A stretch of DNA of 64,000 nt from Microgenomates group bacterium (GCA_049303675.1 JBAQNJ010000001.1:278994-342993), one strand, 5' to 3'. Numbered from the stretch's first letter, positions 58,806-64,000 are shown. Program-made: numbers and translations. The notes: generated by a model not told the origin, from the letters alone.

Positions 58806-59426
58806 TTAATTACAATTCAGTGCCTTCTTGTATCCCGCCGCTATTGCCTCAGCTTCAGTGCAAAACCATTGATCTCCCAAGTCAGTTTCAATATCGGTAT
58901 TGGTATAACCCTTGCATTTTGGTAGCACAAATATTTTTTCATTTTCTCGATTATTACCCTTAATTAGGCACTTGGGATTATTCAGATTAGTCGTCTCTAC
59001 GCACTTTCCATAAATCCCTAACTTATTTTTTTCTGCCACATTATCAATTTCACTTATTTGCTTATTGTCACCCTGACTAACATATCTTACCCAGCCACTT
59101 CTGGCCATTTCTTCGTTGAGCATTTTATTGTCAATCCAAGCAGTTGTCAGTAGTCGTCCAAACTTATCATTTGTTTTCCCAACTATCTTTATCTTTTTAT
59201 TTAGAGTCAGCTTCTCCATTTCATTTTTTGCTTCTTCGAATCCACACAATCCTTTCTCTGGCGCGTCAATATTTGCGAGGCGTATTTCTTGGTTATTATC
59301 AACCACCAGTGTGTCTCCATCGATAACTCTTTGGACTGTATACAGCTTTTCCTTATTTATATTTTTTCCAATTCCTACTCCCACACCAATACATACCAAT
59401 ATTGCCAACACAACTTTCCAATTCAT
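58806..59426 (-). CDS. Thermonuclease (SNase) family protein, membrane-anchored
   Basis: VIDGDTLVV....IRLANIDAPE and the RYV..G pattern of staphylococcal nuclease homologues. Confidence 0.8.
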   Translation of the reverse strand: MNWKVVLAILVCIGVGVGIGKNINKEKLYTVQRVIDGDTLVVDNNQEIRLANIDAPEKGLCGFEEAKNEMEKLTLNKKIKIVGKTNDKFGRLLTTAWIDNKMLNEEMARSGWVRYVSQGDNKQISEIDNVAEKNKLGIYGKCVETTNLNNPKCLIKGNNRENEKIFVLPKCKGYTNTDIETDLGDQWFCTEAEAIAAGYKKALNCN

Positions 59427-59429
59427 ACT

Positions 59430-59693
59430 CTAGTACACCTCCTCATGTTTGCCAATTTTTAATAAATATATAGTACCTTTTTCAATTGACAACAAAATTC
59501 TGATTGATTTATTAACTGAAATTGAATACCATTTTGTTCCTGACAACTTATGCAGCCTGAGGCTTGGATGATCTACATCATGTTCGAGAAGATCTACTAT
59601 TTTTCTAATTTTAACTACATACTTTCGATTGTGTCGAGTTAAATTTCGAAGCTGCTGATCAAATTTGTTTCCGAATACAATTTTGTACACCAA
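59430..59693 (-). CDS. RelE/ParE-fold toxin
   Basis: HPSLRLHKLSGTKWYSISVNKSIRILLSIEKGTIYLLKIGKHEEVY pattern. Lies 6 nt after the antitoxin ORF. Confidence 0.7.
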   Translation of the reverse strand: MVYKIVFGNKFDQQLRNLTRHNRKYVVKIRKIVDLLEHDVDHPSLRLHKLSGTKWYSISVNKSIRILLSIEKGTIYLLKIGKHEEVY

Positions 59694-59699
59694 CTAACA

Positions 59700-59936
59700 C
59701 TATAGACTCTTGAAATAGTTGTCAATATCTTTCTTGTTTTTTAATACAAAGCCCTTACCAGCCTTCCTCTCAGCTTTTGCTTCTGACAATAATTGATCAA
59801 GCTCTGACTCCATCAAAGTTTTTCGTAGTGATGATCTAACCAGATCACTAAACGAGGCATAATAGCCCTTTTCTATTTCTTTTTCAGCCAAAGTCTTTAA
59901 TGCCTTCGGTAGCGATATATTAATTGTACTAATCAT
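59700..59936 (-). CDS. Ribbon-helix-helix (ParD/CopG-like) antitoxin
   Basis: INISLPKALKTLAEKEIEKGYYASFSDLVRSSLRKTL is RHH-like. TGCTAATAT + 6 nt + ATG. Confidence 0.65.
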   Translation of the reverse strand: MISTINISLPKALKTLAEKEIEKGYYASFSDLVRSSLRKTLMESELDQLLSEAKAERKAGKGFVLKNKKDIDNYFKSL

Positions 59937-59973
59937 GTATGAATATTAGCATAATTGACACATGAAGACAATG

Positions 59974-59982
59974 TGTTACAAT
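59974..59982 (+). promoter_or_regulatory. Extended -10 promoter (TGTTACAAT) of the Trp leader transcript
   Basis: 6 nt upstream of the leader ATG at 59989, the same geometry as other leaderless genes here. Confidence 0.6.
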
Positions 59983-59988
59983 ATCCCA

Positions 59989-60060
59989 ATGAAATTAAAC
60001 ATCTCTACAATCTGGTGGCGAGAATCTAGCCCAAGTGCGGGAGATATTAATTTGTCATAA
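59989..60060 (+). CDS. Trp-rich leader peptide MKLNISTIWWRESSPSAGDINLS
   Basis: Tandem TGG TGG at 60013-60018 in the context WWRES (E. coli TrpL: [14 protein letters not shown]). Followed by alternative antiterminator/terminator helices. Confidence 0.65.
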   Translation: MKLNISTIWWRESSPSAGDINLS

Positions 60061-60092
60061 GTTCTAGTTTTTCCAAAAATATCAATCCCGCA
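60036..60092 (+). promoter_or_regulatory. Antiterminator helix of the Trp attenuator
   Basis: TGCGGGA-GATATT (60036-60048) pairs with AATATC-AA-TCCCGCA (60078-60092): 7 + 6 bp with a 2-nt bulge. It competes for the terminator 5' arm. Confidence 0.6.
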
Positions 60093-60109
60093 ACTGCGGG
60101 ATTTTTTTT
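60084..60109 (+). terminator. Intrinsic terminator (attenuator) upstream of tRNA-Trp
   Basis: AATCCCGC-AACT-GCGGGATT followed by a T8 run. Confidence 0.8.
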
Positions 60110-60184
60110 CGTTTAAATAGGTCTAAATTTCAAACGAAGTGAAAAAATTTTGCCTATTTACACAATCCGCCTCTGGCGGAGTTT

Positions 60185-60257
60185 GGGTGGATAGTTCAGT
60201 TGGTTAGAATGCTGGTCCCCAAAACCGGCGACAATGGTTCAAGTCCATTTCCACCCA
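60185..60257 (+). tRNA. tRNA-Trp (anticodon CCA), G1-C72, A73
   Basis: Manual cloverleaf: acceptor GGGTGGA/TCCACCC, D arm GTTC-AGTTGGTTA-GAAT, anticodon stem CTGGT/ACCGG, loop CCCCAAA, T arm AATGG-TTCAAGT-CCATT, discriminator A. No encoded CCA. Confidence 0.85.
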
Positions 60258-60259
60258 CT

Positions 60260-61222
60260 ATGATTAATTATAATCTGACAGTAGATAGGATAAAAAACAG
60301 CCTGCAAAACGGGAGATGTTTCTATGGTGAAACCTATGATTCTCATGGCATGACAATTGACTCTCTAAAGTACTATTTTTTCTTATCTCTACTACATCTG
60401 ATATTAGCTAAATCAAATATCAAAACTGAGTCGACGGTGATAATCGCCGATATTGCCTCGGGTATCAACAAATCTAGTCAAAAAATAAATTGCGATATAG
60501 ATGAGGTGGGGAAAAATCGTCTAGATTATTGTGAAAAAATAAAAAAATATTTTAATTTACCTATCAAGTTTGTTTTAATGAGCAACTTTTTTGCCACCAA
60601 TCCCATTGCAAAACTAGTTGAACAATTCGAAAATGTTGGTCATAGCAACCCCAAAGTGACTGAACTTTTAGCAAAAACAGTACTCCAAAATAAAATTAAA
60701 CAAGAAAATGATTCGGGCTTTCGTTATGGTTATGAAGAAATTGCTACCGGATCATTTTTTAATATCAAAATTGGCCCACCGCGAGAAAAATATTACGACC
60801 AAGCCGCCAAAATTATTTGCAAAAAATTAAAACTGAATCAATTAAAAAGTATTTATCTGACACCCACGTTTCCTTTGGGTCAAGATTTTTCCTATTTCCT
60901 AACTCACCCCGAAATAGAAGAATTTGGACTTACACCATACAAAGCCGGTAGTAACCAAATGCAGGATTTCAGAATAACTATAAATACAACCACGATAGAA
61001 AAAGTTGAGCAACTAATCAACGATACTTACATCACTACTAATCCAAATTTACCAAATCCAATATTTGATTTACTGTTTATTGCCAATATGGCAGAAAAGT
61101 TAAAAAACAAAGAATATGAGTTTCCAGTTTACAAAAATAATATTTATATAAATCCAAAAAAACTAAAGAGTTTTGCTTTCCAGAAAATAACTAGGTTATT
61201 GATTGATCTAAAAAATCTATGA
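60260..61222 (+). CDS. Degenerate class Ic aminoacyl-tRNA-synthetase-like protein (TyrRS/TrpRS fold, HIGH and KMSKS lost)
   Basis: By-eye alignment to trpS and archaeal TyrRS: FYGETYDSHGMTIDS (HIGH region), TVIIADIASGIN, IKFVLMSNF, IKIGPPREKYYDQAAKII (compare PVGIDQHPYILLARDVAKKI), IYLTPTFPLG. ATG 2 nt after the tRNA; the track start at 60200 lies inside the tRNA. Confidence 0.45.
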   Translation: MINYNLTVDRIKNSLQNGRCFYGETYDSHGMTIDSLKYYFFLSLLHLILAKSNIKTESTVIIADIASGINKSSQKINCDIDEVGKNRLDYCEKIKKYFNLPIKFVLMSNFFATNPIAKLVEQFENVGHSNPKVTELLAKTVLQNKIKQENDSGFRYGYEEIATGSFFNIKIGPPREKYYDQAAKIICKKLKLNQLKSIYLTPTFPLGQDFSYFLTHPEIEEFGLTPYKAGSNQMQDFRITINTTTIEKVEQLINDTYITTNPNLPNPIFDLLFIANMAEKLKNKEYEFPVYKNNIYINPKKLKSFAFQKITRLLIDLKNL

Positions 61223-62385
61223 ATAGCCCACAGGCAATTGCCCAATCACATCAAGAATATCAATCTAAATTAACTATCAAGAAAAAAATTGGGGATTATT
61301 ACTTGGATCAAACCACCAAAAATGGTCTCTCTAGCCTTGATAAAATTAAGGCCTATTTACCTCTTGATCTACAGCCACTTCATTTTCGACGCAGCATCGC
61401 TATCGCCCATCTTGATCTTGAACCAATCATCGAAAAAATTGCCAAGAATCAGGAGTTTGTTATTGTTTCCGGTCTCAATCCGTCTTCTCCCTTACACCTC
61501 GGTCATAAGGCCCTGTTTGATTTACTCCTAAGTTTACAAGGACTAGGAGCCAGAGTATTTATTCCTCTGACCAACGACGAGTCGCTAGTTGATGGTAAGG
61601 TTAGTTCTTTGGCTCAGAGTCTAAACATTGCCAAAACCTCAATTCTCCCCGACATTATCAATTTTGGATTTGATCCGGACAAAACCCATATTTTTATTGA
61701 CTCCGAATATCCCCAGCTCTACAACTTCGCTATGTATCTCAGCCAACATATTTCCTTTGGACAACTTCGTCAAGTCTTTGGTGACGATTCACTGACTACT
61801 CCTGGCCAAATTTTTTATCGTGGAGTCGTTCAAATGGCGCAGATCCTGTTACCCCAACTCCCTGAATTTGGTGGTCCAAAAGTGACTTTGATTCCAGTTG
61901 GTATTGACCAGCACCCATATATATTATTGGCTCGTGATGTTGCCAAAAAAATTGGTATGATTCCACCGTCTGAGTTGGTTATTAGATTCTTGCCTAGCTT
62001 ACTAGGGCCAGAAGATAAAATGTCGGCATCAAAACCAAACACTGCTATTTACCTTAGTGACACTCCAGAGGCAATTCACAAAAAAATTAGTCGAGCCTAT
62101 ACCGGTGCTGTTTCAGCCCTTGATGTATATCAAGAACGGGGTGGTATTCCCGAAATATGCTCAGTTTTTACTCTTCTAAATTTTCATCATCCCGACGGTG
62201 TATTTGTCGAAAATATTAAACAAAGTTATTTGCATGGTCTTATTACCATGTCTGAGTTGAAAGAACTTACAACAGCTTTTATTACCGAATTAGTCACCCG
62301 CCACCAGCAAAAAAGCCCGCCTACCTCTGATCAAATCAATAAGTACATTTTAACTACACCATTAAAATCACTTTTAACCCTATGA
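61219..62385 (+). CDS. trpS: Tryptophanyl-tRNA synthetase, archaeal/eukaryal type
   Basis: PSSPLHLGH (HIGH), IPVGIDQHPY, KMSAS (KMSKS) and GGIPEIC. ATGA overlap with the upstream ORF. Confidence 0.9.
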   Translation: MNSPQAIAQSHQEYQSKLTIKKKIGDYYLDQTTKNGLSSLDKIKAYLPLDLQPLHFRRSIAIAHLDLEPIIEKIAKNQEFVIVSGLNPSSPLHLGHKALFDLLLSLQGLGARVFIPLTNDESLVDGKVSSLAQSLNIAKTSILPDIINFGFDPDKTHIFIDSEYPQLYNFAMYLSQHISFGQLRQVFGDDSLTTPGQIFYRGVVQMAQILLPQLPEFGGPKVTLIPVGIDQHPYILLARDVAKKIGMIPPSELVIRFLPSLLGPEDKMSASKPNTAIYLSDTPEAIHKKISRAYTGAVSALDVYQERGGIPEICSVFTLLNFHHPDGVFVENIKQSYLHGLITMSELKELTTAFITELVTRHQQKSPPTSDQINKYILTTPLKSLLTL

Positions 62386-62610
62386 ACCAGATACCCGAAT
62401 CTTTAAACAATAATTCAGACCAAAGGAGGCCTCTAGGTGAACTTCCTCACCAGAGGTTAGTTTGGTGAAACTCCATCACAAAGAAGGTTTATCACTTGCT
62501 TATCCCAATCGCCACTCCAAGTTCTTGACCAAGGTGCTGGCGATCAGCGAATTATCAAACATTTAGATAGAGTCGTCCCTCCTGCCGAGTTTCCCAAAAA
62601 AGAGGCTGAG

Positions 62611-63510
62611 GTGTTGGGCAAGTTTTTAAGTCAAAATCAAACGCATCTTTCTGCTATCGATTTAGGTGGAGTATCTCAAGCAGTAGATATCACCAAAAAA
62701 CTAGTCGCTACACCGTCGCTAGTAAAAAATACAAAAATAATTACTGTCTTTGGCGCTACCGAAGCCACACCTCTTCGGGCTCTAGCTTACCCAATCCCTG
62801 CCCTTAAGTTGGCCACGGAAATTGGAGCAGTAAATCATCAGCTTCTTCCTCAGGTTGAATTTATTTTTATGTCAGAGGCAGGAGTTTTAGCCAATGGACT
62901 CGATAGATCCAAAGTTCATCAAGAAAGGGATCTTCTGCAGAAACTAATCAAAGGCTACGTCGACGAATTTCATCCCTTACTTTCTAGTCATGTCAATTTT
63001 TCCAATGACGACAGTTTCACCCCTCAAGTCATTGCCTCATCTAGTTTCAAGAACTTAACTGATGTTCTCCAAAGTTCAAATGCTGTTAATGATTTATCCA
63101 GAATGGGCACTAGTCATGGCGGTACCAATAACTCCCTAAAATACGGTGTTCTTCACTCTTACGTCCACGACCTTGTCTTGGACGATTCAAATGTCGATCT
63201 ACTCATATCTCTCGGTGCCCAGCCCGAAAGACATTTTTACAAGACAAGACAAGTCCTCAAGCCACATCTTCCATCAGTTGATGGCTTTCGACCTGTAAAG
63301 ACAATTCAATATCTGAGTTCATTTAATGTTCCCCCTTACCAGCCATTGGCAAGTGGCGACCCTACGTTACGTCAAGTTATCAATGACTTTAATAATGTCG
63401 ATTTTGATGATCTTCAAACTCCGGTCCGACAAGCCATAAATTTATTGGCCAAGGATACATCAGGATATTCTACTCTCGCTAACTTTCTCAAAGAAAATCA
63501 AAATATTTAA
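62611..63510 (+). CDS. Second degenerate class Ic synthetase-like protein
   Basis: ITVFGATEATPLRALAYPI (HIGH region without His), VEFIFMSEAGVLANGLD, VNFSNDDSF, LKYGVLHSYVHDLVL....LLISLGAQPERHFYKTRQVL (compare GIDQHPYILLARDVA). GTG start; the frame is open for 150 nt upstream without a start codon. Confidence 0.4.
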   Translation: MLGKFLSQNQTHLSAIDLGGVSQAVDITKKLVATPSLVKNTKIITVFGATEATPLRALAYPIPALKLATEIGAVNHQLLPQVEFIFMSEAGVLANGLDRSKVHQERDLLQKLIKGYVDEFHPLLSSHVNFSNDDSFTPQVIASSSFKNLTDVLQSSNAVNDLSRMGTSHGGTNNSLKYGVLHSYVHDLVLDDSNVDLLISLGAQPERHFYKTRQVLKPHLPSVDGFRPVKTIQYLSSFNVPPYQPLASGDPTLRQVINDFNNVDFDDLQTPVRQAINLLAKDTSGYSTLANFLKENQNI

Positions 63511-63527
63511 ATGTTAAACTTCATCAT

Positions 63528-64000
63528 ATGATCGAACCAATTGTTCTTCAAAATAATCAAACACTCGCAAAACTTGGCATTGAATATACCAACCTCGAGC
63601 ATCCACCCATCAAAGAAATCTTTGATTGTATGCGTTTTCTTGGTCTGCCCATTTCCGAAGGTTTTTCCACCCTTATCATGAAGGCTGATGATCGCTATGT
63701 GGCCATCATCCGTCGCGATGATTGTAAATTAGACTTAAACAAAGCCTGTAAGGTAATTGGCTGCTCCAAATTAAATTTAGCATCCCCCGACGAGTTTGAA
63801 GCCTTAACCCACTTACCTTCCGGAGCCGCTTTCGTCGTTAATTCAGGAATAAAAACATATCTCGACCAAAAGCTATTCGATAAAGAATACCTAATTGGTG
63901 GATCAGGCAGTTTGTCAGTCAGTAACAAATACCGTTCCGTTGACCTCAAAAAAATACCCGACAGCATCATTGTCGATATTGCTGATATTAAGGCAAAACA
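63528..64000 (+). CDS. YbaK/ProX-like aminoacyl-tRNA deacylase domain protein; 3' end beyond window
   Basis: Not in the ORF track because it runs off the end. Manual translation MIEPIVLQNNQTLAKLGIEYTNLEHPPIKEIFDC...STLIMKADDRYVAIIRRDDCKLDLNKA...LPSGAAFVVNSG...LIGGSGSL fits the YbaK/EbsC editing-domain pattern. Confidence 0.6.
   Translation, partial: MIEPIVLQNNQTLAKLGIEYTNLEHPPIKEIFDCMRFLGLPISEGFSTLIMKADDRYVAIIRRDDCKLDLNKACKVIGCSKLNLASPDEFEALTHLPSGAAFVVNSGIKTYLDQKLFDKEYLIGGSGSLSVSNKYRSVDLKKIPDSIIVDIADIKAK

Follow-up and report, generated by a model that had tools for sequence, protein, structure and literature searches.

A putative tryptophan-starvation operon in a Microgenomates group bacterium, with two degenerate class Ic synthetase-like genes and a candidate tryptophan-sensing +1 frameshift site

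We analyzed a 64,000-nucleotide (nt) stretch of DNA from a Microgenomates group bacterium (GCA_049303675.1, JBAQNJ010000001.1:278994-342993; hereafter, the window), in which four genes with the fold of class Ic aminoacyl-tRNA synthetases, the fold that tyrosyl-tRNA synthetase (TyrRS) shares with tryptophanyl-tRNA synthetase (TrpRS), lie consecutively: two with the catalytic HIGH and KMSKS motifs, and two degenerate (Table 1). The degenerate genes, open reading frames ORF1 and ORF3, have the locus tags WAV41_00910 and WAV41_00900, respectively (Microgenomates-group metagenome-assembled genome, GCA_049287145.1). The original prediction, made from the window alone, called three consecutive ORFs at 60260-61222, 61219-62385, and 62611-63510, read the middle one as a catalytic TrpRS and the other two as degenerate paralogues, and placed the set behind a tryptophan (Trp) attenuator and a tRNA-Trp. 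That observation is confirmed with corrections, and its interpretation is partly supported: the ORFs are present as called, and the attenuator and a tRNA-Trp(CCA), at 60185-60257, do lie upstream of them; the points that changed are given below. Here we argue that the locus is probably a single Trp-starvation operon, in which ORF3 would be expressed by a +1 frameshift at a Trp codon. In what follows, L-numbers denote loci of relatives, P-numbers denote homologous proteins, and L067 is the window's own genome beyond the window.

Table 1. Features of the Trp locus, in window coordinates.
Feature	Coordinates	Strand	Basis or remark
Promoter-like site TTGACA, 16 nt, TG-TACAAT	59955..59982	+	11/12 consensus positions, top site of region; basis is consensus match only
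Trp leader peptide ORF MKLNISTIWWRESSPSAGDINLS, 23 codons	59989..60060	+	Tandem Trp codons 60013-60018
Attenuator, predicted intrinsic terminator AATCCCGC-AACT-GCGGGATT then T8	60084..60111	+	Terminator scan
Predicted antiterminator	Pairing of about 60034-60048 with 60076-60093	+	Competes with terminator
tRNA-Trp(CCA), G1-C72, discriminator A73, CCA not encoded	60185..60257	+	ARAGORN and Rfam (63 bits)
ORF1, 320-aa class-Ic-fold pseudo-synthetase	60260..61222	+	ATG 2 nt 3' of tRNA
TrpRS-A1, archaeal-type TrpRS, 388 aa	61219..62385	+	HLGH, KMSAS
ORF3 gene, 0-frame leader MNQIPESLNNNSDQRRPLGELPHQRLVW*	62382..62468	+	ATG overlaps trpS stop (ATGA)
Hairpin CCUCU-A-GGUGA-ACUUCC-UCACC-AGAGG	62430..62456	+	Fold -23.1 kcal/mol, z = -3.06
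Candidate +1 frameshift site TTA_GTT_TGG_TGA	62457..62468	+	+1 frame reads TAG, TTT, GGT
ORF3 body, +1 frame, class-Ic-fold pseudo-synthetase	62464..63510	+	Protein-level conservation from 62461
tRNA_edit (YbaK/INS-type) N-terminal domain of 487-aa TrpRS fusion	63528..64000, past window end	+	PF04073 6.5e-17

The middle ORF, TrpRS-A1, matches PF00579 (7e-34), NF008927 (4e-77), and TIGR00233 (211 bits, above cutoff), keeps HLGH and KMSAS, and has P. horikoshii TrpRS (3jxe) as its nearest solved structure. By profile and motif, TrpRS-A1 is a bona fide archaeal/eukaryal-type TrpRS, in agreement with the original prediction. The second catalytic-type gene is the one that had been read as a free-standing YbaK-like gene downstream of ORF3. 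The tRNA_edit domain is indeed present from 63528, but it is, by comparison with the complete gene, no separate gene: it is the N-terminal part of a second, bacterial-type TrpRS to which it is fused, and the gene for the fusion runs in the same genome from 10918 to 12381 of L067 (487 aa, PF04073 plus PF00579). The fusion protein scores 269 bits on TIGR00233, keeps HIGH and KMSKS, and has no Trp residues, and tRNA_edit-TrpRS fusions are also found in relatives. A first guess that the fused synthetase is a TyrRS was ruled out by its scoring as a bacterial TrpRS. The window domain shares the PF04073 fold with free-standing YbaK/ProX proteins and with the INS domain of ProRS; it differs from YbaK/ProX in being fused at the N-terminus of a TrpRS, rather than being a stand-alone protein of ~160 aa, and in scoring far under the equivalog cutoffs (27 bits vs. 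153).

For the two flanking ORFs, the class Ic fold that had been assigned by eye is borne out by confident AlphaFold2 models (ORF1: predicted local distance difference test, pLDDT, 89.6 and predicted template-modelling score, pTM, 0.90; ORF3: pLDDT 87.2 and pTM 0.89), in both of which the class Ic arrangement of Rossmann catalytic domain, CP1, and C-terminal helical domain is present. Sequence profiles show nothing of it: at E-values up to 10, neither protein has a PF00579 or NCBIfam match, and neither has a Pfam or PDB sequence match by single-sequence phmmer or family-profile hmmsearch. At the HIGH position, ORF1 has G-x-T-(I/L)-D-S, invariant in its family (T-I-D-S in the window), and ORF3 has P-L-R-A-L. 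At the KMSKS position, for which equivalence was assigned from spacing to flanking strands and not from structural superposition, ORF1 has K228-A-G-S-N, retaining the first Lys and one Ser, and ORF3 has V-P-P-Y-x-x-x-x-x-x-D, without Lys. The reported loss of HIGH and KMSKS from the flanking ORFs is therefore upheld, but the earlier identification of QDFSYFL as the ORF1 KMSKS equivalent is not, K228-A-G-S-N being more likely by spacing. Alignment of the ORF1 and ORF3 families with hhalign gave E = 0.69, 0.19, and 0.034 with growing depth, in a constant collinear register but never significantly, and we make no claim of sequence homology between the two families. By computational evidence, ORF1 and ORF3 are genuine, conserved proteins with a TyrRS/TrpRS fold and without HIGH and KMSKS.

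The ORF1 family comprises 193 proteins and is present in 55 species-level genomes of candidate phyla radiation (CPR) bacteria and DPANN archaea, with hosts that include Shapiro-, Woese-, and Dojkabacteria, Paceibacterota, Woesearchaeota, Nanoarchaeota, Aenigmatarchaeota, Micrarchaeota, and Nanohaloarchaea. The ORF1 of the window is 47% identical (E = 1.3e-83) to P0012, the ORF1 protein of Ca. Beckwithbacteria RBG_13_42_9, which is the reference genome of the 2017 study discussed below. Thirty-seven residues, mostly polar and concentrated in the Rossmann/pocket half, are invariant in the family. The predicted ATGA overlap of ORF1 and trpS, at 61219-61222, is real, and a synteny survey shows that the arrangement is conserved beyond this contig: by a strict test, TrpRS lies directly 3' of ORF1 in 48 of the 55 genomes, and, counting divergent TrpRS homologues and one opposite-strand case, ORF1 lies beside TrpRS in 54 of 55. 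Nowhere in the genomes surveyed does ORF1 occur apart from a TrpRS-A-type gene.

The core of this operon has been described. Mukai, Reynolds, Crnkovic & Soll (2017, Life 7:8; PMC5370408) reported 12 instances of a tRNA-Trp(A73)-ORF1-TrpRS-A1 operon in Microgenomates, with HIGH-like and KMSKS-like motifs in ORF1, absence of Trp residues, co-evolution of ORF1 and TrpRS-A, and either a bacterial-type TrpRS downstream, sometimes "fused with small proteins", or a trp repressor upstream of the operon, and proposed a Leishmania-like heterodimer, with ORF1 as a pseudo-subunit. The predicted G1-C72/A73 tRNA-Trp of the window, of archaeal/eukaryal identity by its discriminator, and the window's gene order fit that description, and the original prediction of an "undescribed module" fails to this extent: core operon, ORF1 motifs, and pseudo-subunit idea were all published in 2017. 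Our findings agree with the 2017 account in gene order, archaeal-type TrpRS, A73 tRNA, and Trp-free proteins; they differ in scale, from 12 instances there to the protein and genome counts given above, and in that ORF3 and its family, the site of recoding, the WW attenuator, and the abutment of tRNA and ORF1 do not appear in the 2017 text. We found no follow-up on TrpRS-A/ORF1 in the literature since 2017. With the core module already known, the apparent novelty lies in ORF3 and its family, in Trp control at two tiers, and in the candidate frameshift; the recoding site before ORF3, the Trp-free operon, and the wider ORF3 family with TrpR and racemase were also absent from the original prediction.

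Two further observations concern ORF1. In at least 18 CPR loci (among L001-L032), the ORF1 start codon lies 2-4 nt past A73 of tRNA-Trp or overlaps an encoded CCA, so that tRNA 3' processing would yield a nearly leaderless ORF1/TrpRS-A mRNA, with no space for a Shine-Dalgarno (SD) sequence. In DPANN loci L021, L023, L027, L031, L033, L036, L038-L040, L043, and L047, there is a four-gene pattern around ORF1, with the order divergent class Ic synthetase, ORF1 paralogue (25-30% identity), ORF1, and TrpRS-A, in which each synthetase seemingly has its own pseudo-synthetase neighbor. The divergent synthetase is most likely the TrpRS-A-like protein of Mukai et al.; a first guess, TyrRS, was given up in favor of this assignment.

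The proteins encoded by the operon are Trp-free. There are 0 Trp in the 1214 residues of ORF1, TrpRS-A, ORF3, and the fusion, vs. 1.38% Trp in the other ORFs of the window; the probability of a Trp-free operon by chance is about 5e-8. Homologues are likewise largely Trp-free (115/120 in the ORF1 family and 122/160 in the ORF3 family), and so are those copies of the linked racemase, of TrpR, and of TrpRS that were checked. The lone Trp codon of the operon body, at 62463-62465, lies in the ORF3 leader, with TGA next.

Expression of the operon appears to be under Trp control from its start. The leader has both features of a ribosome-mediated trp attenuator, a leader peptide with tandem Trp codons and mutually exclusive terminator and antiterminator structures. 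Its minimum-free-energy (MFE) fold is the antiterminator form (z = -2.55), and WW or WWW leader peptides are kept upstream of the tRNA in L001, L002, L003, L004, and L008. The Rfam Trp_leader model (RF00513) matches with 24.3 bits, under the gathering threshold of 41; the predicted attenuator is one that works like a trp leader yet lies outside the enterobacterial family model. Elsewhere, ORF1 or ORF3 operons have a TrpR-family gene at their head. The window has in common with the trpL attenuator of E. coli and the at operon of B. subtilis a short leader peptide with tandem Trp codons, alternative terminator and antiterminator structures, and, as proposed, two-tier sensing of Trp-tRNA; in the at operon, uncharged tRNA-Trp is sensed in transcription and in translation. 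The window attenuator differs from both in governing tRNA and synthetase genes rather than biosynthesis, and the second tier differs from that of the at operon in being a proposed frameshift rather than unmasking of an SD sequence. What this predicted classical, ribosome-mediated attenuator (59955-60111) stands ahead of is a tRNA gene.

The start of ORF3 presents a problem. ORF3 is annotated by the Prokaryotic Genome Annotation Pipeline (PGAP) as a 299-aa protein (P0121) starting at 62611, which is also the start in the original prediction, but its homologues are 35-95 residues longer, and conserved coding reaches upstream to 62461: a conserved N-terminus, FGETPSQRR...SPLQVLDQG..., is encoded in the ORF3 frame from that position. 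A start at 62611 would remove 50 residues that are conserved in the family and confidently modelled. The ORF3 frame contains a TAG at 62458 and, after it, no ATG, GTG, or TTG until 62611. The ATG at 62382 opens a 27-codon leader in the -1-shifted frame, ending CAG AGG TTA GTT TGG TGA. The ORF3 frame is +1 relative to this leader, and conservation starts exactly at TTT GGT. Joining 62382-62462 to 62464-63510 gives a predicted trans-frame product of 375 aa, without Trp.

The same junction recurs in relatives. In 11 of 11 lineages, comprising seven that are TrpRS-A-linked (window, L001, L002 group, L006, L007, L015, and L049) and four that are in TrpR-ORF3-racemase operons (L061, L068, L069, and L070), the sequence [C/G]TT_TGG stands exactly where the ORF3 frame begins, after a 0-frame ORF initiated by an ATG 13-27 codons ahead of TGG (21-27 codons in 10 lineages). 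The +1 frame is closed by a TAG directly upstream in 7 of the 11 lineages and by a TAG 0-2 codons upstream in 8 (two codons in L007), and the 0 frame is closed 0-6 codons past TGG in 7. Across lineages, a purine-rich SD-like tract (AGAGG, AGGGG, or GGAGG) lies 2-4 nt 5' of the slip codon; this tract is the 3' arm of a hairpin, an arm that in the window ends 3 nt short of the slip codon. The hairpin, of the same topology and differing sequence, is present in 10 of the 11 lineages (MFE -16 to -25 kcal/mol, z -0.3 to -4.1), and the alignment has compensatory changes in 7 of 9 hairpin pairs; statistical support for the hairpin is moderate. For the window, L001, and L002, substitutions at first, second, and third codon positions show a third-position excess in the 0 frame upstream of the junction (12/12/23) and in the +1 frame downstream of it (73/49/102). 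Five genes, P0121, P0132, P0138, P0149, and P0155, were truncated by gene callers. In L068, a second, degenerate copy of the site, GGGAGG-TAG-TTTGG, occurs at 2770-2800, 130 nt upstream of the ORF3 junction (2900-2925), with 13 open codons after it.

Other origins of the frame discontinuity were rejected. A nonsense mutation or assembly error at TAG 62458 is ruled out by the same-codon TAG in 7 independent assemblies, reinitiation at the nearby TTG or GTG (62462, 62465) by its wrong frame, and transcriptional slippage by a T-run of just 3 nt. Rfam revealed no riboswitch or T-box between trpS and ORF3.

The site has the elements of programmed +1 frameshifting of the prfB/Ty1 type: a slippery P-site codon next to a slow A-site codon, a downstream ORF in the +1 frame, an early 0-frame stop, and an upstream stimulator (an SD-like tract or a hairpin next to the E site). 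On 70S ribosomes, shifting by +1 at CUUUGA is enhanced by an upstream hairpin that adjoins the E site (PMC6321510). The candidate site resembles those of prfB (RF2; AGGGGG-UAU-CUU_UGA_C, with an SD-like tract 3 nt upstream) and Ty1 (CUU_AGG_C) in its NUU_U slip codon, its slow A-site codon, its short 0-frame product, its purine-rich SD-like element 2-4 nt upstream, and its logic, the sensor in each being the molecule that decodes the A-site codon. It differs in that the A-site codon is a sense codon, for Trp, and the signal would be charged tRNA-Trp, in place of a release factor or rare tRNA; in that the P-site codon is mostly GUU in the ORF3 lineages; in that those lineages have a covarying 5' hairpin; and in that the shift is read here from sequence alone. 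A 2016 recoding review states of hungry-codon frameshifting that makes starvation-specific proteins that "no examples are known" (PMC5009743), and our literature search found neither a bacterial Trp-codon programmed frameshift nor any case after that review. On balance, we lean toward the view that NUA_GUU_UGG (or CUU_UGG) with its 5' hairpin is a conserved, Trp-sensing, +1 programmed frameshift site that gates expression of a Trp-free, class-Ic-derived family of CPR bacteria.

The ORF3 family extends well beyond TrpRS-A operons. A profile search of 1.84 billion representatives yielded 506 clusters with E <= 1e-3; at the stricter E <= 1e-30, the number is 113. None of the ORF3-family clusters searched has a Pfam match. 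A metagenome scan yielded only three near-identical loci. Conserved residues of the family include an invariant Y, H, E, R, and Y and a near-invariant H-D. Away from the TrpRS-A operon, ORF3 genes typically stand in the order TrpR, ORF3, an Asp/Glu-type racemase (TIGR00035, 138.6 bits) that is translationally coupled to ORF3, and a bacterial-type TrpRS or YbaK-like gene. Racemase-ORF3 operons lie behind TrpR in L061-L065 and L068-L070, and the racemase adjoins ORF1-TrpRS-A in CPR and archaeal loci L041, L042, L046, L050, L054, and L056. A role for the racemase in salvage, converting D-Trp to L-Trp, is speculation. One homologue, P0235 (972 aa), has two tandem ORF3-like modules, at residues of about 99-425 and 481-907. 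This single-chain pseudo-dimer suggests that ORF3 proteins pair with themselves.

The explanation that best joins these observations, and that we rate slightly above an even chance, is a single Trp-starvation operon with the order promoter, WW leader-peptide attenuator, tRNA-Trp(A73), ORF1, TrpRS-A1, ORF3, and YbaK-fused bacterial-type TrpRS. When Trp-tRNA is scarce, the ribosome would stall at the WW leader, the antiterminator would be favored, and tRNA 3' processing would release the nearly leaderless ORF1/TrpRS-A message. Entry into the ORF3 gene would be by translational coupling, its ATG overlapping the stop of trpS. With plentiful Trp-tRNA, GTT_TGG_TGA would be read and a 28-residue peptide released; with a hungry TGG in the A site, peptidyl-tRNA on the P-site GTT (CTT in some relatives) would shift +1, with GGT as the next codon, assisted by the 5' hairpin and SD-like tract as in prfB and Ty1, and the outcome would be the 375-aa ORF3 protein. 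More tentatively, ORF1 would be an obligate partner of TrpRS-A, in a heterodimer or bound complex serving tRNA-Trp(A73), and ORF3 would be a separate starvation-induced protein, probably self-dimerizing, that acts on Trp or tRNA-Trp beside an amino-acid racemase and a bacterial-type TrpRS.

Several observations weigh against the frameshift. With 47 differences, the substitution test upstream of the junction is a small one (roughly p = 0.08), L061 and L068 give weak hairpin z-scores, L006 has no hairpin, and re-pairing of tRNA-Val from GTT to TTT is poor. Others bear on the alternative that there is no frameshift, and that ORF3 is translated conventionally, either from the annotated GTG 62611 or from GTG 62437 with readthrough of UAG 62458, or is a decaying pseudogene in this genome, the upstream short ORF being a Trp-sensing regulatory ORF or a coincidence. 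The 299-aa PGAP form agrees with this alternative; in the ORF3 frame, AAAGGAGG stands 7 nt ahead of a GTG, which makes for a good, SD-preceded start; and the +1 frame of L001 is open, with SD and GTG. In the window, L061, L068, and L070, start codons in the +1 frame lie ahead of the TAG, so that initiation in frame and UAG readthrough are conceivable there. L063, a close relative of L061, L068, and L070, has an in-frame TGG where these have TAG, and L063 and L062, both in-frame relatives, also have 0-frame ATG-initiated ORFs; a single G-to-A change could be a route from an ancestral in-frame gene to dependence on the shift. Against the alternative stand the conserved, confidently modelled residues that the 62611 start forfeits; the lack of any ATG, GTG, or TTG in the ORF3 frame ahead of the conserved region in L006, L007, L015, and L069; and the same-codon TAG in seven independent lineages, each time followed by an intact body of >340 codons, a pattern that is not decay. 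For readthrough, no UAG-decoding tRNA was found, and the anticodon of the operon tRNA is CCA. We regard translation without a frameshift, or decay, as unlikely.

The roles proposed for the proteins face two further alternatives. Strict coupling of ORF1 to TrpRS-A across two domains of life favors a physical partner. However, the pocket region is the best-conserved part of ORF1 and its C-terminal helical domain is variable, which suits an enzyme over a passive subunit, and with invariant polar residues in the pocket half a passive anticodon-binding subunit is unlikely. ORF1 and/or ORF3 may instead be autonomous enzymes, not partners of the adjoining TrpRS, in which the class Ic scaffold is reused for new chemistry on Trp or Trp-tRNA-Trp. 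The scaffold has precedents for new chemistry in cyclodipeptide synthases (CDPSs), MshC, BshC, and PvcA. The 37 invariant ORF1 residues and the conserved ORF3 set point in this direction, as do the occurrence of ORF3 without any TrpRS-A, coupled to a racemase, and the tandem double ORF3 protein, which speaks for self-pairing of ORF3 and not for pairing with TrpRS. Conversely, a Trp-tRNA-consuming enzyme would be oddly placed in a module induced by Trp-tRNA shortage, ORF1 has never been found away from a TrpRS-A-type gene, and full-length TyrRS and TrpRS are much closer structural matches than CDPSs; we consider autonomous enzymes possible but doubtful. Quite improbable, in our view, is a non-enzymatic role for ORF1 and ORF3 as sensors or regulators, like anti-TRAP or HisZ, in which binding of Trp or of uncharged tRNA-Trp would serve to modulate expression or the availability of tRNA. 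HisZ, a synthetase paralogue that serves as a regulatory subunit, is a precedent, the class Ic fold supplies amino-acid and tRNA binding sites, and the Trp-regulated context is well supported; yet neither protein has a DNA- or RNA-binding regulatory domain, regulation is already provided by TrpR or the attenuator, and stoichiometric coupling to TrpRS-A points to a structural partner.

For ORF3, the favored reading is a self-dimerizing protein that takes part in Trp salvage or quality control through a ligand or chemistry of its own, because of its TrpRS-A-independent occurrence, its conserved Y/H/H-D/E/R/Y set, and its tandem form. For ORF1, the partner reading can be set beside the double-length TyrRS pseudo-dimer of Leishmania major (PDB 3p0h). 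In the window, by contrast with that enzyme, the modules are encoded by separate genes and have diverged much further (9-15% identity), the putative pairing is suggested by gene coupling, and the equivalent of the anticodon-binding domain is the least conserved part of ORF1, the opposite division of labor.

If the frameshift is true, it would be the first instance in nature of a starvation-specific protein made by hungry-codon frameshifting, a design proposed by recoding specialists and never documented: the ribosome would read the level of charged tRNA-Trp at one sense codon, and the frame switch would yield a protein needed only in starvation. It would also follow that the ORF3 family is systematically truncated by gene callers. 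Frameshift aside, the results define two large, Pfam-invisible families of TyrRS/TrpRS fold that are tied to Trp control (193 proteins for ORF1, at least 506 clusters for ORF3), that occur in CPR bacteria and DPANN archaea, obligate amino-acid scavengers, and whose chemistry is probably new. The A73 tRNA and TrpRS-A form a naturally orthogonal pair, which is of practical interest.

Downstream, an MFS_1 transporter gene (L067 12386-13543) starts 4 nt past the YbaK-TrpRS fusion and may be a further member of the operon; its product contains 4 Trp, in contrast to those of the operon genes upstream. Directly upstream of the operon, on the minus strand (58806-59936), lie an SNase-domain gene and two small paired genes (59430-59693 and 59700-59936), one of which has a weak ParE-like match; the pair may be a toxin-antitoxin system.

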